From positions 2,542,001-2,606,000 of the forward strand of contig CM030338.1 of NCBI GenBank assembly GCA_017654855.1: a stretch of DNA of 64,000 nucleotides. Reading direction: 5' to 3'. The position numbers and the translations under genes were made by a program. The notes under the pieces are model-generated. The model did no database searches and was not told the DNA's origin. It saw nothing but the letters and a program-made list of their open reading frames with translations. Within the stretch, counting starts at the first letter, position 1. The number at the start of each line of letters is the position of its first letter. Shown here one piece after another: positions 1,111 to 20,152 of the stretch. Source of the DNA: Podospora anserina (Eukaryota).

Positions 1111-3181
1111 ATGTCACCCGCTTCCCAACCAATTCAAATCACCAAAAAACGCCTGGTCATCTGCTGTGATGGCACGTGGATGAACAGTGACACGGGCTAC
1201 AGGAAATCATCCTACCGGAACCCTATTGGAAAAACGGCTGTTCCGTCCAATGTCACCCGTCTCTCCCGGTCTTTACGTCGGTCATGTACAGATGGAACTC
1301 TTCAGGTCATTGATTATCACTCCGGAATTGGCTTAAGTGGCAGTTTCGCAGATGTTTTATCCGGCGGTGCTTTTGGCTTGAGCATCTTTGAGGTGTGCCT
1401 CAGTCAAAGTACTGAAGCAGTCCGCACATGCTTACAGAGTTTCAGAATATCCGGTCAGCCTACTCCTTCATATGTGCCAACTATACCGATGGTGATGAGA
1501 TCATCCTTGTGGGCTTCTCACGGGGAGCCTTTACCGCAAGGTCAGCTGCGGCAATGGTCTCGGATCTAGGGCTCCTGACCCGCGAAGGCATGGAGTATTT
1601 CTACCCCATCTACAAGGACAGGCGGCATTGGCGGGATACCAAATATAAGGATCCTTTTCCGGATACACCGTTTAGTGATAAGCCCAAAGGGGATGATGCT
1701 TCACGGAAGTATCGAGAGATGCTTGTCGAGGTAGGCTTGTTCTCTCTATTTTTGTTCATGAGTGCTAAGTTACAATGATTAGAAGGGTCTCACACGCATC
1801 CATCAGAACCATGAGAACAGGTCACTGATCAAAGTGAGGGCTGTTGGTATGTATACTTGTCCCAATCATCAAAGGGTATAGTTTGTTGCGGTGGACGTGA
1901 TACTCACGCTCAAATAGCCGTGTAGGACACTATTGGAAGCTTGGGAATACCCCATTCAACCGCCGAATTTCGCTTACTTGACACTGACTTGTCAGATCGT
2001 ATCGAGTATGCCTTTCATGCACTTGCCCTCGATGAACACAGGTCCTCATTTATACCTACAGTGTGGGAGCGCACCGTTGATAACCTGGGTGCCACAGACT
2101 TACGCCAGGTTTGGTTTCCAGGCAATCATGGAAATGTAGGCGGGGCCTGGAAAGATGCCGGAATGTCCGACATTACTTTGGCTTGTGAGTGCGATTTCTT
2201 ACAACTATCAATCCTCACTAACATCCTCCAGGGATGATGGATCAGCTTGCGTCCATTGGCGTCGAGTTTGATGAGGCAGTCATCATGCGCCTTTTTGACC
2301 AGCTTGAACACTCTTACCGCGACATGGCTGAGAAAGACCCCAAGTGTACGCATGCACAGAAGCACCCGAGACCAAGCAGGCCGTTGATAGAAGTCGAACC
2401 ACCTCCAATAGAGTCGAACAATCTCCCAGAATGGGTGCGATTCCGACTGCGAAGTCTTTCAACGGCAACCGATACTGGGAAGAAGATCATCGGCGAGAAG
2501 CACTGGGCCATCAAGCCCATCTGCGCAAGAAATATCCCCCTTCGACCCTGGGCGCTCGGCGCAATTCGCGGTTCCAAGGCTGCCGGATCCAAAGTTCGCT
2601 CACCATGCGCCTATAAGAAGAGAGATCCTATCACCGGAAAAAAGACCAAAGACTTCCTCGAGGATACCAACGAGCGGATGCATAGCTCTGTGCGTGTCCG
2701 TCTCGCGTTAGAGGGGCTTGGGCTCAACGACAAAGGTGTCTGGGAAGCTCCGGCACTGAAAGGGAAATGGGCCTTGCGAAAGACCACTCGAGAATTTTTG
2801 GATCCCATCCCCAAAACTGTGACATCCTGGGAGAAAAGTACCGCATCAGCTGCAACAACATCCTGGAAGAAGAAGCTGGACCTGTCCAACAATCAGACTG
2901 CACACAAACAAGATGACGACGAGTCGCTGGCTGCTTCAAATGCCGCAACGTTAGTAGAGACGGCAGTTGAGCAGCAGCGCCCGTTGCAGGCGATGGATAA
3001 CAAGGGTTACAGGTGGGTTTGGGAGTATTGTGGCAATGCGAAGGATGCACCACCCCAGAAGGTGATGGTAGAGGAGCAGCTGGGGCCGTTTGAAAGACAG
3101 TTGCTGAGATTGTTAGGGGGTGTGCCAAATGTGTATGAGTTCGCCGAGACGGTGGAGCGGATGGATGGGAGGAAGGTGTAA
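1111..3181 (+). CDS. DUF2235 / Tle1-like alpha/beta hydrolase, 5 exons (1111-1392, 1446-1730, 1783-1846, 1918-2184, 2232-3181), with one in-frame TAG at 1923-1925
   Basis: Motifs KRLVICCDGTW, SNVTRL, GFSRGAFTAR, V*DTIGSLGIP, AFHALALDEHR, QVWFPGNHGNVGG and LAWMMDQL. All four GT-AG introns have branch sites and consistent phases. Confidence 0.88.
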
Positions 3182-3476: not shown

Positions 3477-4110
3477 TCAAAGCGGTCTTGATCTGCATCT
3501 TGAAGAGCTTTTCTGGTCTGTCTCTTGATCAGACTTGGTTTGTACTTTTTTGGCTGCTTCGATATGAGCTACCAGACGGGTTTGCTTTGTCTGCGCCGAG
3601 CTTTGCTTGCACGGGCGACTGGCGTGAGTAACCTCGGAGTTTGAGTCTCTCTGGGGAGGAATCTTTGGCTGACAAGGCTGTGTAGGTGGGCTTGGGTCTG
3701 GCGAGGCTTGGGTGGTGTTGGCTGGTAGTGAGAGGGTACTGTAAGCTGGTGGTGAGAGGGTGCTGTAAGCTGGTGGTGGGGTCAATCGTGGGCCCAGTGG
3801 TGGACTTGGTGATGGGCTCAATGATGATGCGCTGTATGATGTGCTCGATGTTGATGTGCTCCATGATGCGCTGTATGATGCGCGCGATCGTGTGCTCGAT
3901 GATGTGGTCTGTGATGTACCCGATGGTATGCTCCGTGATGAGCTCGATGGTATGCTCGATGATGCGCTCAATGATGCGCTCGATAATGCGCTCGATGTCG
4001 TGGGCTCGGGATCATATGAATCCTCGATAGGCTGTACAACTCTTGGCAGGGAGTTGCAAGGAGATGTCCTTGTTGTATTTCTCCTGAACCGCCAGATCTG
4101 TCGGTTGATG
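3477..4110 (-). CDS. Possible Ser-rich orphan ORF with two PPAY motifs; start not resolved
   Basis: Open frame ...SASSSIPSSSSRS...PPPAYSTLSPPAYSTLS.... No in-frame ATG found and no recognisable domain. Confidence 0.25.
3815..3997. repeat. Degenerate 12-bp tandem repeat (consensus ~GATGATGCGCTC)
   Basis: Repeated units gatgatgcgctc / gatggtatgctc / gatgatgtggtc / aatgatgcgctc. A separate 24-bp duplication lies at about 3725-3777. Confidence 0.8.
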
Positions 4111-12778: not shown

Positions 12779-13518
12779 TTAGACGAGGCCGAGCTTGGTG
12801 GCGGCAATGTCGAGGGCATCGACATCAGCGGTGAGGCGGGCAAAAGCCTTCTTGGAGCCGTCGGGGCGGATCAAGGTGTTGATCTTGACGGTGTCAATGT
12901 CGTAAAGCTTCTTAAGAGCCAGCTTAATCTGAGCCTTGTTGGCCTTGACATCGACGATGAAGACGAGGGTGTTCTGCTCCTCGATCTTCTTAAGGGCACC
13001 CTCGGTATTGAGGGGGTGGATGATGACCTTGTGCTCGTCGAGGCGGGGGGCGTGGGGGATCGACTTGCGGGGGTACTTGGGGGCGCGAGACAACTGGAGG
13101 GTCTTGGGGCGGTGGAAGGTGGTGCTGTGGCGGACCTTGGTCTTCTTGTGGGCGTGGACCTGGAGAGGGGATTAGACTTCTGATCGTGAGGCCAAAGTTG
13201 GAGAGAAGAAGTAACATACACCCTTGAGGGCAGCCTGAGCAGCCTTCTTCGCCTGAGCACCCTTGCCAGCCTTGGAGGCACCGCCTGTATCGTGGAAGAG
13301 TCGAGTCAGTATAAAGCATTCGCCTGAACAAGGGGAGGACCGTCTTGTTCAAACTCGCAAAATCTGCTGCTGCTTTGATGCTTCACCTCGCCGCCATCAT
13401 TTTGCGACATGGTCGGCGGCGAAGCTCCGCACTGAGCGACGGCCGAAATTGTTGTGTTTGTATCAATCCATTTCCTGGAGGATTCTCAAGTACCTTTCTT
13501 AACGTCCTTGGGAGCCAT
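12779..13518 (-). CDS. RPL25: 60S ribosomal protein L25 (uL23); exons 13518-13494, 13284-13220, 13159-12779
   Basis: MAPKDVKKG... then [37 protein letters not shown] and [17 protein letters not shown]. Two canonical introns. Confidence 0.97.
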
Positions 13519-13844
13519 TTTTGCTGTTTGTCGGCACTGGGCGAAGTTGTCGTCTAGTCGGTCGTGGATGGGGAAGGGAAAAAAAGTTGGCGGAATTTTG
13601 CTAAAACGATTTAACAGAATGTGTGTGCGGAGACCTGTGGCTGGTTGGTTGTGGCTCCTGCCCCGCTCTTTTGTGAGAGGAAGAATGTGTGATTGGCCAA
13701 GCCCCGGACTTGGAGCTCCCGATAAGATAAGCAGAATGATGAGCTTTGGGAGCTTTCGAAAAATTACCCACAAATCCACCTCGTCTTCCCAACTTTAGTT
13801 CCCTCGAGGAACGGTGCAACAACCATGCAGTCCGCTTGCATGCC

Positions 13845-14711
13845 ATGGCACTCAAGAAGAAACGTCCGCAAAAGAACTTAGCCGCTGGTCGGCCGCCCAT
13901 TCTTCAACGCCAACCAAAATCCATCACCAGAAAGTCGACAAAAGCTCTCATCAATAAGCACCATCTCCTCGAGAAGAGAAAGAAGCAGGCGCTTGCCAAG
14001 GGTGATGATGCAGGTGTCGCCGCGATCGATGCAGAGATTCAAGCTCTAGGTGGCCTCGAGGCATATCAGAAGGCCAGTCTTCAAGGCCAGAGGGAGGACC
14101 GCGGCGGTGACAGCTCGAGGGTTCTGATGGAATGGCTGCAGCCATGCCTCACGGCTCATAAAGAGGGATCGGGTCAGATGCTCAAGATGCTCGAGGTTGG
14201 CGCGCTCAGCACACAGAATGCTTGCTCTCAGAGCGGCTACTTTGACATTACTCGTATCGATTTGAACAGTCAAGGCGAAGGGATTCTGCAGCAGGATTTC
14301 ATGGAACGGCCTTTGCCCAAGGATGACACGGAGCGATTCGATATCATCAGCCTGTCGCTCGTTCTGAACTTTGTGCCGGATCCGAAAGGAAGAGGGGACA
14401 TGCTCAAGCGGACGACGGAGTTTTTGCGCGCAGCCGGCAGATATCTCGAGGCTCCTTCACTGACGACCAACTTTCCGAGTCTCTTCCTGGTGCTCCCCGC
14501 GCCATGTGTCACGAACTCGCGGTATCTGGATGAAGAGAGGTTGGTTGGGATTATGGCGTCGCTTGGGTACGCGAAGGTTGAGTCCAAGACGACTCAGCGG
14601 CTGGTCTACTATCTTTGGAGGAGAGAAGGCAAAGGCATCGCTCGACGTTTCCGAAAGGAAGAGATACGGGCTGGCTCGACACGGAACAACTTTGCTGTTG
14701 TTCTGGGGTGA
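13845..14711 (+). CDS. BMT2: 25S rRNA adenine-N1 methyltransferase Bmt2
   Basis: Motifs LGGLEAYQKASLQGQ..RGGDSS, MLEVGALS, IDLNSQ..ILQQDFMERPLP, SLSLVLNFVP, LPAPCVTNSRY and RNNF. Confidence 0.92.
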   Translation: MALKKKRPQKNLAAGRPPILQRQPKSITRKSTKALINKHHLLEKRKKQALAKGDDAGVAAIDAEIQALGGLEAYQKASLQGQREDRGGDSSRVLMEWLQPCLTAHKEGSGQMLKMLEVGALSTQNACSQSGYFDITRIDLNSQGEGILQQDFMERPLPKDDTERFDIISLSLVLNFVPDPKGRGDMLKRTTEFLRAAGRYLEAPSLTTNFPSLFLVLPAPCVTNSRYLDEERLVGIMASLGYAKVESKTTQRLVYYLWRREGKGIARRFRKEEIRAGSTRNNFAVVLG

Positions 14712-14881
14712 ATACTCTCCTGGTGTTGGTTTTGGCCAGTTCGCTGGGCGGGGTTGATCTTCCTCTTTGGAATGGGAGGTTGTGATGTCCCCATCATCCT
14801 CACCGTGGCAAGAGCCCAAGGCACTTGGCATCTGGGCAACTTGTGCATCAAGGTATGTTATGACTTGACATTTCACATGAC

Positions 14882-14967
14882 TGGCGATGATGCTTTGCAA
14901 CCTAAAGTATTTGCTACTTCAGAGCCTCCGGGCCATGAGACAAACTATTTCACCATGCACTGAGCCA
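14882..14967 (+). ncRNA. Box C/D snoRNA, U24 (snR24)-like, intronic
   Basis: TGGC/GCCA terminal stem, C-like box ATGATGC, D' CAGA preceded by guide AGTATTTGCTACT (antisense to LSU rRNA AGUAGCAAAUA, the U24 target region), D box CTGA at 14960-14963. Lies inside intron GTATGT(14853)..GCTGAC..TAG(15037). Confidence 0.85.
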
Positions 14968-15226
14968 CTTCAGTTTACTAGAAGCATTTCTCACAAGTCC
15001 TGTTGAAGGGTTGCCAGGCTGACAAATGCGATTCTAGGCTGCTCCATGAGATGGTTCTCGCTCTCTCCACCGCCGGTTGGCAGTTAGGGCCTTTGCCATC
15101 AGCACAATATGTTCGATTTTGCTCTTGTGTCGTCGTCCCAACAAAGAATACCTTGCCGGCAGTTTCTGAGACGAGATGGGCAGTCTTATGGTATGTGCGC
15201 ATCTCTTTTTACTCTCTCCCCTTACC

Positions 15227-15297
15227 ATGATGACCTAGACATTCTAAACAGTTATCCCTATCTGAAATTATGGTGTTGACTTGGTTCTAACTTCTGA
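15227..15297 (+). ncRNA. Box C/D snoRNA, snR38-like, copy 1, intronic
   Basis: C box ATGATGA, guide CAGTTATCCCTA (antisense to LSU AGGGAUAACUG, the yeast Gm2815 region) before D' CTGA, terminal D CTGA. Lies inside intron GTATGT(15191)..GCTCAC..AG(~15362-15366). Confidence 0.88.
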
Positions 15298-15487
15298 TTT
15301 TCGTTACTTTTCACCTCGATGTTTGGCCGTTCCTGCTGGAAGCCTGAGCTCACATCTTGAAGACAGTTCTCTACTAGTGGCACCTCAGTGACACAGCCGG
15401 CAATCGATATCAGACTCAAATTTCGGTACGTTTTACTTCTTCGTCGCATTGTGATTCCTTCATCTCCCCCCAATACCCGCATGTAAT

Positions 15488-15558
15488 ATGATGACCTAGG
15501 CATTCATAAACAGTTATCCCTATCTGAATAACAGTGTTGATCCGGTTCTAACTTCTGA
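15488..15558 (+). ncRNA. Box C/D snoRNA, snR38-like, copy 2, intronic
   Basis: ATGATGA..CAGTTATCCCTATCTGA..GGTTCTAACTTCTGA inside intron GTACGT(15426)..TAG(15635). Confidence 0.88.
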
Positions 15559-15731
15559 TTTCTTACTTTTTTTACCTCCCTTGTTGACTTCCATATCTTT
15601 GATCTGGCATAGACTTACAAGTCACCGTTTACTAGGCATTTGCAGCTATATTATGAATCTCATGTCGAGACGTGTGCGACAACGCAAGCAAGGGTAAGCT
15701 TTTAGCTTTATTTACTTCCACCCCCCTTTAC

Positions 15732-15804
15732 GTGATAACCGAGACATTTCAAAGAGTTATCCCTATCTCAAATAACACAATGTTGATCTGGTTCTAACTT
15801 CTGA
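15732..15804 (+). ncRNA. Box C/D snoRNA, snR38-like, copy 3 (degenerate C and D' boxes), intronic
   Basis: GTGATAA..GAGTTATCCCTATCTCA..GGTTCTAACTTCTGA inside intron GTAAGC(15694)..GCTAAC..AAG(15868). Confidence 0.75.
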
Positions 15805-18800
15805 TTGCCCTTACTTTCCTCAATACATGTTTGCTTGCTGTTTTTGGGCCCTGCTAACATCATGCAAGATCCTTGACATCTGGCAATCGTGTCCTGCCAC
15901 GACATCGCTTGAACAAGTAGCAGCTATCCGCTGTCTGCTCTACACATGCCGCTACCCCGAGATAGTTCCGCATAAGACCACCTCGAGCTGGACGACGGAT
16001 GACGGCGCGATGTTGTCGTTGTCTTCAAATCTTTACCAAACGTATCCAAAACGGTGTTCAGTTTTCTTCAGTTCAGCATTCATTCGCAAGCTAGCAAGCG
16101 GTGTGACAGCCAAGACGCAGCCAACGTGCCATTCAACGATTTTTCACTGCGCAGCAATGAGCTGATCATGCGGGTTGCCGGCGTCTACTTGCAAGGTCCG
16201 ATTACCCCACAACGCTGGGGAGGTGCGGGAAGGAAGGCTGTTGTGAGGGGGGACGGAGGCGACGCCGGGATGCTGCATCTGCGCTGCTGCTGTGTCAAGC
16301 AATGGATGGCAAGAGGGAGACAATTGATGTGGCAGAGCGCGCATGCGATCAACATGCAGTGGGATGGTTTGGTTCGGAGAGGATTTCCGACAGTATTGTT
16401 GGGCGTGATTGGGTTGTTGTTTCGTGAGGGGTTGAAAGAGGTCACCTGGACAGAATGAGTTTTGGAGACAGGGAAGGGGAGGGTCGATCGGATGGTTGTG
16501 ATGGAGACATTTTGTGTGTTTATCACTGGGTTATGATGGTTCACATATTGGGGGAGATGAATGAGACAGCCAATTGATGGGGTTGACAGTTCACTTTGCA
16601 GGTTTTGTGTGTGCGGTGTTCACTCCGGTCCGCGATGGGTGATGTTGGCGGTGGTGGTGGACGACTAAGATGCAGTGCAGGAGGCACTACACCCTCTTTG
16701 TGTGGATAACGAACAGCTTTTTGGGTGCCAGGGTCTTGCGTTTGGTTAATGTTTGACAGGAGAGTTGGGTAGCAAATGTGTCTGTGCTGTATTCAATGTC
16801 TCAAATTGAAGCCTTTTCTCACGAGTAAGCTATGGGCGATACCGGACAGACTATCACGACTCCCTTTCTCCTCGTCGCCGTCGTCAGTGACGGGTTTAGA
16901 ACAAAGAAGTACGGATCCTGGCCATCGCGATATCGGAAGTTTCTTGGCGAGGGTCGCGATCTACGGTTGTTCTGAAGGTTGGCAGTAGATAGAGGCGGAT
17001 AACTGGTTTCTACAGTTGTATGTATGGGATGTTATCACTTGGGAATTGCCACTTATCAATCTTGGCCTTTTGGTGCAATCGCTATGGTACCAGGTATGAT
17101 GGAAAGTTGAGGTTCCCTCACCCCATCAATTGTTCTAGATTTCTGGTGGGAACAAAGAAAGTTTGGTGGTGGTGGTGGTGGTGGGTGGTGGTGATGGTGA
17201 ATTCTCCGAGGGGGAGGCGAGAAATGATCGTCGGTGTCACTTGAGCCACCGTTAGGAAGTGTGTGTGCTAGGATTGTGTAGCCGCGGGAGGCGCTTTCGC
17301 TCTCAACAACTTTTCTCTTTCAGAGTTTCGGTAGATCCCGTGATGGTACCAGGTTGGGATGGACCGGGGTAGGATAAGGGGGAGGGGTGAATGGAAGCGA
17401 TTGGGTTATTGAGTAAAATAGCCGGGGATAATCGTAGAGGGGCGCGCTGGCTGATGATCATATGATGACGATTATATTCTCAGAGCAGCTCAATGGGTTT
17501 GCCTTTCTTTGGCTTGGGGGGAGATGGCGGGGCTGGGCGGTTCCAAGCAGCAATGAAGCTGGGCAGATATTATTCATTGGATCTTTGAGAGAGGGCAAAG
17601 AAAGCTACCTAGCTCACTCCCAGTAAAGCGGCAACGGCGGGGAAACCCGCAGTATGGACGACGGGCTGTTGCAGCATTCATTGCCTCCTGCGTACCATAA
17701 CCTCCTCTTTTGTGAGCAAGGAGAGAGCTGGCGGTTTGACCGCCGAGAGCTGACCACCTACCTACCCTTGAGGTGGCGCATTTGTTAGCATCAATCTTGC
17801 CCAAGTCAAGCCCAAGCGCATGCAACTTCCCCGGATTTTTGGTGGAGTTTCTCCCCCTCGCAAGCTAGACTGAACGGGGAAAGCCGGCCTGGCCTGCTTG
17901 AGGTAGTTTGGTTGTGCCCGAACAGGATTAGAATGAACATCTATAAGACTGAATTGGTCTCACGCGGGCAAAAACATGTCTCGATTTGATAAGGGGGGAG
18001 GGGGAGGGGGAAACTGTATCTGTATCAGGAAGAGGGGTTGTTGTGGGGAGAGATCAGCAGGAGTTTCCTTTGAGAGATCGATAACAGTGTGGTGTTGATA
18101 CAGAAAAAGGGGGGGGGAGCTAAAAAGCGATAAGGATTTTGCTCTCCGTTGCCGGCCGAGAGAAAGTTGACGACATCCTGATGAAATATGAGATAGCGAT
18201 TTTGAGATAAACTGATAGCTACATACAACGTACCTAGGTACACCTACCTACCTTCTTGTCCTGGCTTGGGGTTTTTTTTTTAGTAGCGATAGTAAAAAGG
18301 TAAATTCAGGGGCTAAACAACGCACACATGTCCGTCTGGTAGCGAGGTTGCAACCGATGAGGTCAGGAGGGAGGGGAGCCAAAAGATTGCGATATGGGTT
18401 AGGTGTTTACTGTCTGGTCGGGTCGGGTAAAACCGTTATCACGTTCCTCTTGGTTTTGGGCAACAGGAGAACCAAATTTATCGGATGGTGCTATTCTTGG
18501 GGTAGATAGCGTCGAGTGTAAAATAAGGGGCTAGTAGGGGTGGTTTCTGTTTAGATGGTAACCCAACCTCGACGGCTTGTGACAGTGGCATGCGTGGACA
18601 AAGACAAAACGTCACCCCCGTGATGATGACGATAAGCGGGTGCCGGCTTTTGACTACCGCCAGGCCCAGCGGGGTGGTAGATAACATAGTTTGAGACCAC
18701 GACATGAGAGACTGAGTCCTGACTGTTGGTGATGCCTTGAAATAATCTGAATCGAAGAGTGCGATTCATCTAATCGAGAGATCAGAAATCCGATCAGCCG

Positions 18801-18890
18801 GTTCAATTTTGAGCCAACAACCGAAGTAACCACCCTTCTTCTCCGCGTTCAAGCTCAATCCGACATCTCAACTCCCGGCTAGCGGCAGAG

Positions 18891-20152
18891 CTAAATCTCA
18901 GCAAATGTCTTGATGACCCGGTGCTTCTCTCTGTCCTCAGCCGACAACTCGGCATTGCCCGGCCGCTCGACAACAAAGCTCTGCATGCCAGCTTGCTTGG
19001 CAGCCTCCACCTCCTTGACATTGTCGCTCAGGAAGAGCCAGCTGTTCGCCTCTGGGAATTCCGGATGAGCTGCCAGGATGGTCTGGTAGGACGACGCCTC
19101 TTGCTTTGGCCCGGCATTGACTGTGTCAAAAAAGTCGGAAATCTCGGGAATCAGATCGGCCGGGTGACCGTTGGTGTGCTTGAACAGCAGCTTTTGCGCC
19201 GCCACCGATCCGGAAGAGTAGATCATGATCTCTTCTCCGGCCTTCTTCCACTGGACAAACTTGGGAGCGACATCGTCGAAGAGCGGGGCCTTGAGCTCGC
19301 CGGACTTGTAGCCGGACTCCCAGAGATAACCCTGGAGGCTCTTGAGGTAGGCGATCTTGACATCACGGCTCATGAGGTCCTTGACATGAGCTGTCAAGGC
19401 TTCTTGTGAGCTGGCATGCTCTGCCGGAAAGGCGTCCCTGTACTGTGAGAACTCTGGCTTGTCCCATTGGGCTTCAAGGGTTGCTGGGAGCGCTGAGAGA
19501 GCGTAGGGAAACTATCCATAGTAAAGCAGGAATATGATTATTAGCATAAGTTCTAAGTTGTAGATCCTGCCGGCCAACCGGATAACAGCCCTGGTCTTCC
19601 TGCGTTTCTGATATGTGTGTGGCTGGAGAGAGGGAGAGAAGGGTCCTTTCAGAACTTTCTGACAGCACATCGCATCCCATCTCCCTTCCCGTGCTTGGAG
19701 AGTGTGAGGTTAAGGCCCTGCAGTGACACACCACACAGAGACACCCGCCACGGTGAATTGACCAACGACCAGTTAGGGGCAGCAGGAGAAGGGAGGGGCT
19801 GGTCCGGTCATGAGTGGCTCGACCGCATTGTGATGGCCGGAGGGTCGAACCACAGCGGACACGGTCACGGAGTTTGCCATGGAAAAAAGTGTTGGGAGTG
19901 GTGAGAGGGGAGGCACTCACAAGCACATCCTTGACGAATGAGATGGGACATACTGTGCCCTCTGTGGCAGCCAAGTTGGTATTAGCCAATTCGCCCGTTC
20001 CAAGTCATTCAGTGATCATCTGGCTGCCCCTCCATCCGACCACGAGGGGCTGAAGAAGCTGGCTAATGCAGAGGTGGGACGCGAGGGATGTGTGAGGGGT
20101 GGCTGGTACCAATGTCAAGGAGCACGACCTTGGGCTGGCCGGACGACGCCAT
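18891..20152 (-). CDS. UTR4: Enolase-phosphatase E1 (methionine salvage, HAD family); exons 20152-20110, 19961-19921, 19511-18891
   Basis: Spliced [24 protein letters not shown], plus LKSLQGYLW, IYSSGSVAAQKLLF and LFLSDNVKEVEAA. Confidence 0.95.

Follow-up and report, generated by a model that had tools for sequence, protein, structure and literature searches.

In the 64,000-nucleotide stretch of Podospora anserina DNA that we analyzed (the window; positions are counted from its first letter), the gene for the ribosomal protein RPL25 and the gene for the 25S rRNA methyltransferase BMT2 point away from each other. BMT2 is followed on its own strand by a spliced tail whose four introns each hold one box C/D snoRNA (Table 1).

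Table 1. Features of the RPL25-BMT2 locus and of the tail behind BMT2
Feature	Position	Strand	Details
RPL25 (uL23) gene	12779-13518	-	CDS exons 13493-13518, 13218-13283, 12779-13157
RPL25 introns	13158-13217 and 13284-13492	-	joints 13157/13218 and 13283/13493 present in RNA contigs
RPL25-BMT2 intergenic region	13519-13844	.	326 bp, start codon to start codon
BMT2 CDS	13845-14711	+	intronless, 288 aa, 25S rRNA adenine-N1 methyltransferase family
Exon 1, untranslated tail	14712-14852	+	141 nt, BMT2 stop to first 5' splice site
Intron 1	14853-15037	+	185 nt, GT..AG joint in 4/4 runs
Intron-1 box C/D snoRNA	~14883-14966	+	C ATGATGC 14887-14893, D' CAGA 14920-14923, D CTGA 14960-14963
Non-coding exon 2	15038-15190	+	153 nt
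Intron 2	15191-15362	+	172 nt, joint in 4/4 runs
Copy A, snR38/CD23-like, intron 2	~15222-15301	+	C 15227-15233, D' 15262-15265, C' TGTTGA 15274-15279, D 15294-15297
Non-coding exon 3	15363-15425	+	63 nt
Intron 3	15426-15635	+	210 nt, joint in 4/4 runs
Copy B, snR38/CD23-like, intron 3	~15483-15562	+	C 15488-15494, D' 15524-15527, C' 15535-15540, D 15555-15558
Non-coding exon 4	15636-15693	+	58 nt
Intron 4	15694-15868	+	175 nt, joint in 4/4 runs
Copy C, snR38/CD23-like, intron 4	~15727-15808	+	GTGATAA 15732-15738 at C, CTCA 15767-15770 at D'
Non-coding terminal exon	15869-16820	+	about 0.95-1.3 kb depending on contig end

BMT2, RPL25 and the spliced tail

The BMT2 ORF matches the Pfam Bmt2 profile (PF11968) with an E value of 1.8e-92 and 309.6 bits against a cut-off of 20. 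Judged by this full-length match above the Pfam cut-off, its product is a member of the BMT2 family. Since the profile is matched over positions 2-221 of 221, the stop codon at 14709-14711, where the first-pass annotation had also ended the gene, is the true end of BMT2. The search returned 2,680 homologues at E ≤ 0.001, and a Podospora pseudopauciseta protein named 25S rRNA (adenine2142-N1)-methyltransferase is 98% identical. On the other strand, the spliced RPL25 frame reads as a clean protein of 156 aa with the Pfam domains Ribosomal_L23eN (E 1.2e-15) and Ribosomal_L23 (E 2.9e-13). The divergent arrangement, noted earlier with a spacing of about 330 bp, is thus as described, and the intergenic region may hold a shared or bidirectional promoter. 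The motifs TGATGAGCT (13737) and AAAAATT (13759), which we take to be PAC-like and RRPE-like, lie 35-65 nt upstream of the 5' ends of the BMT2 contigs (13780, 13803, and 13806). This pair occurs a single time within 13500-17300, just ahead of the contig starts.

Introns were read from splice joints in assembled RNA contigs from four runs (X1, X3, X6, and X9), each of a different study. These contigs represent RNA, because both the RPL25 introns and the four tail introns are skipped in them. Every one of the four tail joints was found in all four runs, and since the introns are GT..AG on the + strand, the tail is transcribed in the direction of BMT2. The four same-strand introns called from the letters were exact for introns 1, 3, and 4; intron 2 ends 4 nt away from the ~15366 given there. 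The exons between them are short and apparently non-coding, as the first-pass annotation had described them. Upstream of the first intron, the contig that carries BMT2 coding sequence extends uninterrupted over 14712-14852 in 4/4 runs. Run X3 also holds an unspliced piece over intron 4 (15664-15897), with a depth of 8.11 compared to 10.3 for the joined form. The contigs end within the terminal exon at 16812 (X6), 16820 (X1), and 16847 (X3), and that of X9 extends to ~17190. In the spliced tail, the longest ATG ORF has 96 aa (16168-16458) and lies within a 151-aa stop-to-stop frame. Neither this frame nor five other tail frames matched Pfam at E ≤ 1, and 15800-18900 gave no Rfam match at E ≤ 1. 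Neither tblastx nor blastn detected similarity between the terminal exon and 80 BMT2 loci of relatives.

Four snoRNAs in the tail introns

We defined a box C/D snoRNA as having a C box RUGAUGA near the 5' end and a D box CUGA near the 3' end, 60-120 nt apart. The copies in introns 2 and 3, with C box ATGATGA and D box CTGA, are box C/D snoRNAs by this definition. The intron-1 snoRNA has a D box CTGA and ATGATGC at the C position, the same variant that is printed for Neurospora crassa CD51. In intron 4, GTGATAA departs from the C box definition; its D box CTGA (15801-15804) and its C' box (15781-15786) are intact. With its C and D' boxes off consensus, copy C may be weak or dying. In each of the four introns, 62-74 nt separate the D box from the 3' splice site. 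The earlier proposal of exactly one C/D snoRNA per intron, one U24-like and three snR38-like, stands, with damage to C and D' in the intron-4 copy.

The 18-nt D' guide word of the intron-1 snoRNA is identical by eye to the CD51 guide as given in supplementary files 1 and 4 of Liu et al. (2009, PMC2780460), and the guide words of the snoRNAs fully match those given there for N. crassa CD51 and CD23. The guide word AGTTATCCCTATCT has three occurrences in the 64 kb, one each in introns 2, 3, and 4; at least three matches were seen in 0/100 shuffles. Both guide regions are invariant among the three CD23 copies, and the snoRNA bodies are 79-88% identical (61/77 to 67/76), compared to 44-63% in the aligned flanks. 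Against RF00213 (snoR38, gathering score 45), copy B reached 39.8 bits (E 0.00025, 15480-15565) and copy A 33.2 bits (E 0.0087, 15219-15304), and copy C had no Rfam match at E ≤ 10. The intron-1 snoRNA scored 19.5 bits (E 9.4) against RF00069 (SNORD24), whose gathering score is 41 bits, and the whole window had no Rfam match at gathering thresholds. Copy A scores 92.7 bits with R1, a profile made in this analysis. Because all Rfam scores are below gathering, the identification rests on near-identity by eye to the published N. crassa CD23 and CD51. On this sequence comparison, the intron-1 snoRNA is an orthologue of Neurospora CD51 (U24b type), and those of introns 2-4 are three paralogues of CD23 (snR38), which would have arisen by tandem duplication of an intron-plus-exon unit.

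In box C/D snoRNAs generally, an antisense element of at least 10 nt that ends beside D or D' pairs with rRNA, and the methylated position lies opposite the 5th nucleotide upstream of the box. Table 1 of Liu et al. (2009, PMC2780460) lists an 11/0 match of CD23 to 26S Gm2773 and a 13/0 match of CD51 to Am1430. By orthology, the intron-1 snoRNA would guide 2'-O-methylation of 25S/26S Am1430 (Liu et al. numbering), and the CD23-like copies would guide Gm2773; no rDNA was found in the 64-kb window. A contig piece in run X3 covers exactly 14883-14966 between foreign flanks, which is only suggestive of a stable intron-1 snoRNA of about 70-100 nt.

Contig continuity of the tail with the BMT2 CDS

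In three of the four runs, from three studies, a contig covers the BMT2 CDS completely and continues over the four junctions into the last exon. These contigs span 13803-16820 in X1 (2,276 nt) and 13806-16812 in X6 (2,267 nt), and in X9 a contig of 2,673 nt runs from 13780 past 16900. A 491-nt contig in X3 starts at 14636, 75 nt inside the BMT2 CDS, and crosses junctions 1-3. Among the contigs listed, none starts between 14711 and 14853. The snoRNA introns are physically continuous with the BMT2 CDS in the RNA assemblies, which supports a composite gene in which the BMT2 mRNA carries a 3' extension hosting four snoRNA introns. We favor this reading with moderate confidence. That the continuity reflects single molecules is our inference: the assemblies are unstranded, overlapping transcripts can merge in them, and a contig over two genes proves no single transcript. 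Splicing, strand, and continuity with the CDS, as the first-pass annotation had them, hold up; the placement of CDS and snoRNAs on one molecule goes further than contigs that may be merged.

The locus could instead consist of two overlapping units, a BMT2 mRNA polyadenylated in or just past 14712-14852 and a separate UHG-like non-coding host with its own start in the BMT2 3' end or UTR. The assemblies would then have joined the two RNAs through an overlap of 31 nt or more; if, for example, the BMT2 mRNA stopped at ~14800 and the host RNA began at ~14700, one contig would result. Contigs are known to merge neighboring genes, and the prior favors a separate non-coding host, because such multi-intron hosts are the rule for the fungal snoRNA clusters described in the relevant parts of Liu et al. 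(2009, PMC2780460) and Luo et al. (2013). Like UHG/GAS5-type hosts, the tail is a multi-intron transcript with one snoRNA per intron. Their third property, exons without a conserved ORF, would apply if the tail has a separate start site; it does not apply if the contig is one molecule, because the contig carries the whole BMT2 frame. In run X3, the mean word depth climbs toward the 3' end, from 7.8 in the CDS to 13.3 (14636-15693, spliced) and 29 in the last exon, a rise compatible both with 3' bias and with an additional start downstream; such depths should not be ranked. Against two units, contigs of 4/4 runs connect the spliced exons with 75 nt or more of BMT2 CDS, those of 3/4 runs with the whole CDS from the BMT2 5' end on, and no start falls in 14711-14853 among the contigs listed. 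Furthermore, the first 5' splice site follows the BMT2 stop by only 141 nt, which leaves little room for a polyadenylation site, a separate promoter, and a first exon. That 13500-17300 holds no second TGATGAGCT/AAAAATT pair weakly favors one transcript from the BMT2 promoter. Two units therefore seem to us possible, though rather unlikely.

Alternative polyadenylation, already raised in the first-pass annotation, is a further account: most functional BMT2 mRNA would end soon past the stop, and the long spliced form would be a read-through fraction that serves only snoRNA delivery and is then degraded. This agrees with all contig data, since poly(A) tips are removed in assembly and a proximal site would escape notice. 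On the other hand, positive evidence for it is lacking, with no loose poly(A) end reported in 14712-14852, and the long form is the sole assembled form in three runs. We regard this account as improbable.

In the composite gene that we favor, RNA polymerase II would start about 40-65 nt upstream of the BMT2 start codon, transcribe the intronless frame, and continue without terminating across four short introns, separated by three tiny non-coding exons, to a non-coding last exon of 0.95-1.3 kb. The snoRNAs would presumably be released by trimming of the spliced, debranched introns. The spliced product would remain a BMT2 mRNA, with four exon junctions at least 141 nt past its stop codon. One promoter would then supply a 25S base methyltransferase together with 25S ribose-methylation guides.

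Lineage, predicted mRNA decay, and other snoRNA hosts

The four snoRNAs are absent from all 80 BMT2 loci of relatives (48-79% identity), and the divergent RPL25 neighbor is kept in 46 of 54. The generality that the first-pass annotation implied for BMT2 with a snoRNA tail is thus not borne out, and the linkage is young and lineage specific; the tail arose within the Podospora lineage. Because the arrangement is absent from 80/80 relatives' loci, conservation provides no argument for functional coupling. At a Coniochaeta-like locus (L019), where BMT2 is 87% identical to a Coniochaeta BMT2, a 179-nt GT..AG intron begins 93 nt past the BMT2 stop and contains a CD4-like C/D snoRNA 63 nt before the 3' splice site. 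This is a second, independent case of the same architecture with a different snoRNA. Only 2 of the 81 loci examined have a snoRNA tail behind BMT2, and the snoRNAs differ between the two.

A stop codon more than ~50-55 nt upstream of an exon-exon junction makes an mRNA a substrate of NMD under the exon junction complex (EJC) rule. The geometry of BMT2 fits this rule, because the stop, ending at 14711, lies 141 nt ahead of the first junction (14852/15038), with three further junctions downstream. Junction-dependent NMD of the tailed BMT2 mRNA is therefore predicted, and an effect on the Bmt2 level may follow from it. Lelandais et al. (2022, PMC9801653) count 344 P. anserina genes (about 3%) with one or more 3'-UTR introns, propose NMD regulation for them, and point out that this fungus has EJC and NMD factors; for N. 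crassa, that paper cites Zhang and Sachs (2015) on NMD through 3'-UTR introns. The word snoRNA appears 0 times in this text of Lelandais et al. (PMC9801653), in which the 3'-UTR-intron genes are treated.

The post-stop stretch of BMT2 might be a recurrent landing place for snoRNA introns in Sordariomycetes, reached independently in Podospora and the Coniochaeta-like fungus by different snoRNAs. In Podospora this would give a bifunctional RNA: a single ribosome-biogenesis promoter would set how much base methyltransferase and how many guides are supplied, and obligatory 3'-UTR splicing would lead to NMD, keeping snoRNA output high and Bmt2 low. As a whole, we consider this scenario improbable.

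Intron-encoded snoRNAs and non-coding hosts of several snoRNAs are textbook knowledge. Yeast snR38 lies in an intron of TEF4, and yeast U24 in an intron of ASC1/BEL1. Their introns hold one snoRNA each, as in the BMT2 tail, but belong to other host genes and lie in coding regions rather than past a stop codon. Going by the N. crassa orthologues in Table 1 of Liu et al. (snR38 with CD23, U24/U24b with CD51), the yeast snoRNAs and those of the BMT2 tail have the same guide functions. According to Luo et al. (2013), fungal cluster snoRNAs come from independent genes or non-protein-coding hosts. The N. crassa UHG-like hosts (clusters I-V) described by Liu et al. (2009, PMC2780460) resemble the BMT2 tail: a Pol II transcript has several short introns with canonical splice sites, each intron carries a single box C/D snoRNA, and the exons are very small and lack coding capacity. 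The ORFs of those hosts measure only 159-267 bp, whereas the assembled Podospora transcript begins with the entire, conserved BMT2 frame of 288 aa. In N. crassa, CD51 is listed on chromosome VII and CD23 on chromosome V, outside any common cluster, and most snoRNAs are single copy (PMC2780460); behind Podospora BMT2 the two are together and CD23 is triplicated, in contrast to the single-copy rule reported for Neurospora. Animal protein-coding snoRNA hosts are, like BMT2, often ribosome-biogenesis or translation genes, and their spliced RNA can be subject to NMD, so that snoRNA and protein output are uncoupled (Lykke-Andersen et al., 2014, PMC4233243; Fafard-Couture et al., 2024, PMC11028025). 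The snoRNA introns of animal hosts usually lie within the coding region, or NMD results from alternative splicing; with all four introns past the stop, every spliced BMT2 molecule would have NMD-type geometry. The wording "3 UTR" was not found in the accessible text of Lykke-Andersen et al. (PMC4233243), nor did the snoRNA-host papers covered here describe a fungal snoRNA cluster that follows the stop of a conserved enzyme gene.

The BMT2 snoRNA tail is a real, lineage-specific twist on familiar intron-hosted guides. The BMT2-RPL25 neighborhood is kept across many fungi and the tail is found at 2/81 loci, evidence of the speed at which snoRNAs move between hosts. Should the joined transcript prove real, every molecule that yields the snoRNAs is also an mRNA with four post-stop junctions, and the locus would provide a clean test case, in a fungus amenable to genetics, for how the balance of host protein and snoRNA is set by NMD.

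Spliced introns and open reading frames around BMT2

The stretch is contained in 22 sequencing runs, 17 with 0.52 to 0.58 of its sampled words and five with 0.99, none of them recorded as RNA. We used four runs of the 0.5 class (X1, X3, X6 and X9, one each from four studies) as contig assemblies and judged their RNA nature from splice joints. Since both RPL25 introns and four stretches 3′ of BMT2 are skipped, the contigs derive from RNA; an uncovered bin at 13608-13751, between RPL25 and BMT2, and low bins within introns were not counted as evidence. The four introns downstream of BMT2 that the first-pass annotation had predicted are all spliced, and its coordinates proved exact for three of them. 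For intron 2, the start at 15191 held, and the end is 15362, 4 nt from the earlier estimate of about 15366. Because the introns, after the stated shifts of the joints, are GT..AG on the plus strand, the spliced RNA runs in the direction of BMT2.

Features of the locus (window positions) and of the metagenome locus L019 (its own positions)
Feature	Position	Strand	Remarks
RPL25/uL23		-	Pfam Ribosomal_L23eN E 1.2e-15, Ribosomal_L23 E 2.9e-13
BMT2 ORF	13845-14711	+	288 aa; Pfam Bmt2 PF11968 E 1.8e-92, profile 2-221 of 221
Intron 1	14853-15037	+	GT..AG joint, 4/4 runs
Intron-1 snoRNA boxes	C 14887, D′ (CAGA) 14920, D 14960	+	
Intron 2	15191-15362	+	GT..AG joint, 4/4 runs
Intron-2 snoRNA (copy A) boxes	C 15227, D′ 15262, C′ 15274, D 15294	+	
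Intron 3	15426-15635	+	GT..AG joint, 4/4 runs
Intron-3 snoRNA (copy B) boxes	C 15488, D′ 15524, C′ 15535, D 15555	+	
Intron 4	15694-15868	+	GT..AG joint, 4/4 runs
Intron-4 snoRNA (copy C)	GTGATAA 15732, CTCA 15767, C′ 15781, D 15801	+	
Downstream convergent ORF	18891-19511	-	4180 nt from BMT2
L019 BMT2 stop	1533-1535	+	
L019 predicted intron	1629-1807	+	179 nt, GT..AG; starts GTGAGC, 93 nt after BMT2 stop; GCTAAC branch site

The stop codon at 14711 is the natural end of the protein, since the Pfam profile is covered almost completely and the product is 98% identical to a Podospora pseudopauciseta protein named by NCBI 25S rRNA (adenine2142-N1)-methyltransferase. The three CDS exons of the divergent RPL25 gene give a clean 156-aa frame once spliced, and the start codons of the two genes are 326 bp apart, an interval that is a candidate for the bidirectional promoter proposed in the first-pass annotation. 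Behind BMT2, the exons between the introns measure 153, 63 and 58 nt, and the spliced tail has ATG ORFs of up to 96 aa. A hidden coding gene was sought in the tail and last exon in six frames, with no Pfam match at E≤1; the last exon had no tblastx match at 1e-4 to 80 relatives' loci. For further RNA families, 15800-18900 gave no Rfam match at E≤1. Two unspliced pieces were assembled, 15664-15897 in X3, with intron 4 retained (depth 8.11 versus 10.3 for the joined form), and 15399-15608 in X1, with part of intron 3 retained (3.7 versus 49.5). Splicing may be less efficient for intron 4, which carries a degenerate snoRNA copy.

Between the ends of most contigs and the convergent ORF lie about 2 kb (16900-18890) with no notable ORF or Rfam match, a (GGT)n run near 17160-17195 and G-rich runs near 17990-18120. 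The convergent ORF has no Pfam match, and we take it to be enolase-phosphatase-like; its homologue lies convergent downstream of BMT2 in 14 of the 80 loci, at 850-5460 nt.

Four box C/D snoRNAs, three of them alike

At gathering thresholds Rfam gave no match anywhere in the 64-kb window, so the family names do not come from Rfam. In E-value mode, snoR38 matched at 15480-15565 (39.8 bits, E 2.5e-4; gathering score 45) and at 15219-15304 (33.2 bits), the intron-4 snoRNA had no match, and SNORD24 at 14882-14967 was at chance level (19.5 bits, E 9.4). We named the snoRNAs by eye against the available portion of the published Neurospora crassa set (Liu et al. 2009, PMC2780460). The intron-1 RNA resembles N. 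crassa CD51 over its full length, and both have the unusual C box AUGAUGC and the guide AGUAUUUGCUACUUCAGA, followed by a stem-like GCC(C/U)C(G/C)GGCCAUGAGAC. The RNAs of introns 2 to 4 resemble CD23, with ...ACAGUUAUCCCUAUCUGA... and ...GUGUUGA..GGUUCUAACUUCUGA in common. In that portion of the set, CD51 is the U24b homologue, with a D′ guide for 26S Am1430 (13/0 match), and CD23 the snR38 homologue, with a D′ guide for 26S Gm2773 (11/0 match). By their identity to CD51 and CD23, the snoRNAs of the window, which holds no rDNA, have these two sites as putative targets. We take the yeast equivalents of Am1430 and Gm2773 to be Am1449 and Gm2815. In all four introns the D box is 62-74 nt from the 3′ splice site. 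The earlier assignment of one U24-like and three snR38-like snoRNAs, one per intron, was thus confirmed, with the amendment that the U24-like RNA belongs to the U24b/CD51 type and that in the third snR38-like copy the C and D′ boxes are degenerate.

A separate 169-nt contig in X3 contains 14883-14966, 84 nt with one difference from the predicted mature U24b-like snoRNA. [quoted passage not shown] Either the genome has a second copy in a different host, or the contig is chimeric.

In the window, AGTTATCCCTATCT has three occurrences, one apiece in introns 2 to 4; none of 100 shuffles reached that number. The snoRNA bodies of the three CD23-like copies are 61/77 to 67/76 identical and both guide regions are invariant, whereas the aligned flanks have diverged (15/32 to 57/108). 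Conserved bodies and guides between diverged flanks suggest that a unit of intron plus exon was duplicated in tandem long ago and that selection has acted on the snoRNA bodies. Precisely the two boxes required for a functional 5′ guide are mutated in copy C, which may be decaying or serving through its D-box side only. For the invariant stretch preceding the D box, the available part of the Liu et al. list gives no target. In the accessible text of Van Nues et al. 2011 (PMC3116282), snR38 is listed among snoRNAs with extra complementarity adjoining the methylation site, and the invariant stretch is possibly such a complementarity.

Continuity of the snoRNA tail with BMT2

A 2276-nt contig in X1 consists exactly of 13803-14850, 15036-15189, 15362-15424, 15635-15692 and 15868-16820. 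The X6 contig (2267 nt, 13806 to 16812) has the same structure, and that of X9 (2673 nt) runs from 13780 via the same joints past 16900, about 290 nt further (to about 17190). X3 has lower depth and some strain differences, and there the locus is in pieces, one of which, a 491-nt contig, begins at 14636 inside the BMT2 coding sequence and spans joints 1 to 3. The spliced tail is therefore connected to the BMT2 coding sequence in all four runs, and in three of them the assembled RNA has its 5′ end at the expected start of BMT2 mRNA. Contig ends at 16812-16847 in three studies give a weak hint of a 3′ end.

On this evidence we lean towards BMT2 and the snoRNA tail being a single transcription unit. 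The first-pass annotation had proposed this continuity, and the assemblies, which come from four studies, support it at the level of contigs. The contigs are unstranded assemblies, in which one that spans two genes shows no single transcript and an overlap of 31 nt would fuse two. Separate but overlapping units, BMT2 and a snoRNA host RNA, could thus have been merged. Mean word depth in X3 climbs from 7.8 in the coding piece to 13.3 and then 29 in the last exon, a rise that could reflect a second start site, as this alternative would have it, or 3′ bias. However, only 141 nt separate the BMT2 stop from the first 5′ splice site, which leaves little room for a terminator, an independent promoter and a first exon; this and the junction of tail and coding sequence in every run make two units rather unlikely. 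That alternative polyadenylation yields a mixture of forms we regard as more doubtful still.

A second and independent case came from the relatives. A scan for splice sites plus boxes, which recovers two of the four window introns, gave one match in 163 kb of the relatives' downstream sequence versus 3 in 906 kb elsewhere. This single downstream match is in L019, a locus encoding a protein with 87% identity to BMT2 of a Coniochaeta species. Its predicted intron holds an ATGATGA ... CTGA ... CTGA snoRNA with the guide ACAUGCAUGGCUUUCUGA of N. crassa CD4 (18S Cm49) and a D box 63 nt upstream of the 3′ splice site; in Rfam this region had only weak C/D matches (E 0.49-6.9). Another Coniochaeta-like contig, L017, has no such snoRNA intron within its 270 nt downstream. 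The same architecture with a different snoRNA, so close behind the BMT2 stop, argues that snoRNA tails can ride on BMT2 transcription. A relaxed version of the scan gave 7 plus-strand versus 12 control-strand matches, which is no enrichment, and L019 alone was credible. A terminal-stem filter for C/D candidates was dropped because it was too strict, losing L019 and returning noise.

In a single unit, the snoRNAs would be released from debranched lariats, and the tail would be co-regulated with ribosome biogenesis through the BMT2 promoter. The latter proposal comes from a PAC/RRPE-like pair that precedes the contig starts: TGATGAGCT and AAAAATT lie 21 nt apart at 13737-13765 (+), 35-65 nt ahead of the 5′ ends of the BMT2 contigs, and 13500-17300 contains no second such pair. 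The two words resemble PAC and RRPE, motifs found in promoters of yeast ribosome-biogenesis genes; the 64-kb window has 13 occurrences of GATGAG[CA]T. With the tail, BMT2 has the arrangement of stop codon and junctions for junction-dependent NMD, and from this geometry we infer that its transcript would be NMD sensitive; NMD may limit Bmt2, as the first-pass annotation had suggested. The accessible text of Lelandais et al. 2022 (PMC9801653) gives 344 P. anserina genes with 3′-UTR introns and the presence of NMD and EJC factors, and cites Zhang and Sachs 2015 for N. crassa.

Conservation among relatives and comparison with known hosts

We built an alignment of 13 BMT2 proteins and collected 80 metagenome loci with BMT2 relatives (48-79% identity). 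Going by the best match to a named protein, the set includes Cladorrhinum samala (L003, 100%), Chaetomiaceae-like, Lasiosphaeriaceae-like and Coniochaeta-like contigs and more distant Sordariomycetes. At least 300 nt follow the BMT2 match in 73 of the 80 and at least 1200 nt in 55. Synteny of the snoRNA tail across Sordariomycetes, which had been suggested as a check, is not seen in these loci; what is kept is the divergent RPL25, present in 51/80 and in 46/54 of those with at least 1 kb of upstream flank. Neither AGTTATCCC nor TATTTGCTAC occurs in any of the 80 loci. GGTTCTAAC occurs once, in L030, 4.7 kb upstream of BMT2 and outside a snoRNA context, and the shorter words GTTATCCC and ATTTGCTA have 1 and 4 matches within 3 kb downstream of BMT2, again with no snoRNA context. 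A sequence profile of the three CD23 copies found only the window's own three (598 kb, E≤10), and blastn and tblastx of 14712-17200 and 14712-18890 against the 80 loci found nothing. An Rfam search of 14 loci (65.6 kb) with a cut-off of E≤1 returned no matches, a weak negative since it missed the CD4-like snoRNA of L019.

In C. samala, the closest relative sampled, the contig ends 314 nt after the BMT2 match. Just before this end, at about 1223 (+) and about 260 nt after the BMT2 stop, is a GTACGT with no snoRNA. In L006, another of the loci, about 305 nt separate the stop from a GTAAGT...GCTAAC...CAG stretch of 53 nt at 3494-3546 (+), also with no snoRNA. These Sordariales signals hint that introns in the BMT2 3′ UTR may predate the snoRNAs. 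In the available portion of Liu et al. 2009 (PMC2780460), N. crassa CD51 is on chromosome VII and CD23 on V, so the two are not together there. The snoRNA tail appears specific to one lineage.

A different element of the locus is shared more widely. The first RPL25 intron, 13284-13492 (-), 209 nt, contains a strongly conserved element at about 13303-13395, with the core AGCAGCAGCAGAT(T/A)TTGCGAGTT. By blastn, it is in the same place, the RPL25 intron adjoining BMT2, in 24/80 loci. Five Chaetomiaceae-like contigs match it at 92-94% over 83-86 nt, and distant loci retain the 23-nt core. We rejected this element as a C/D snoRNA (ATGATGG...CTGA) because the box-like words are not conserved in the alignment. 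RNAalifold gave 10 pairs and no covariation. Contigs that cover this intron unspliced are deep, 138.5 and 247.6 versus 572 and 399 for the spliced form. The element may be autoregulatory or control splicing; RPL25 has 0 occurrences among the structures of PMC8216456.

The published N. crassa hosts also have several introns with one snoRNA in each, but these hosts are non-coding and their ORFs measure 159-267 bp (Liu et al. 2009, PMC2780460, as far as available). The accessible text of Luo et al. 2013 (PMC3596301) places fungal cluster snoRNAs in independent genes or non-protein-coding hosts. In animals, host genes that encode proteins are well known, as are host isoforms sensitive to NMD (PMC4233243 and PMC11028025, both in part). 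The P. anserina genome paper mentions just 13-15 snoRNA genes, without loci. The literature searched on BMT2 and snoRNA hosting gave only reviews naming both, with no snoRNAs described behind BMT2, and that on Podospora snoRNAs and filamentous-fungal host genes held no description of this locus; the supplements of Lelandais et al. 2022 may list the gene. The accessible main text of the fungal snoRNAome paper has 0 occurrences of 'host gene', snR38 or U24, and its supplements may list these snoRNAs. If BMT2 and the tail are one unit, as seems somewhat the likelier case, a UHG-like snoRNA tail has been fused behind the gene for a conserved ribosome-biogenesis enzyme, a known type of host in a lineage-specific arrangement.
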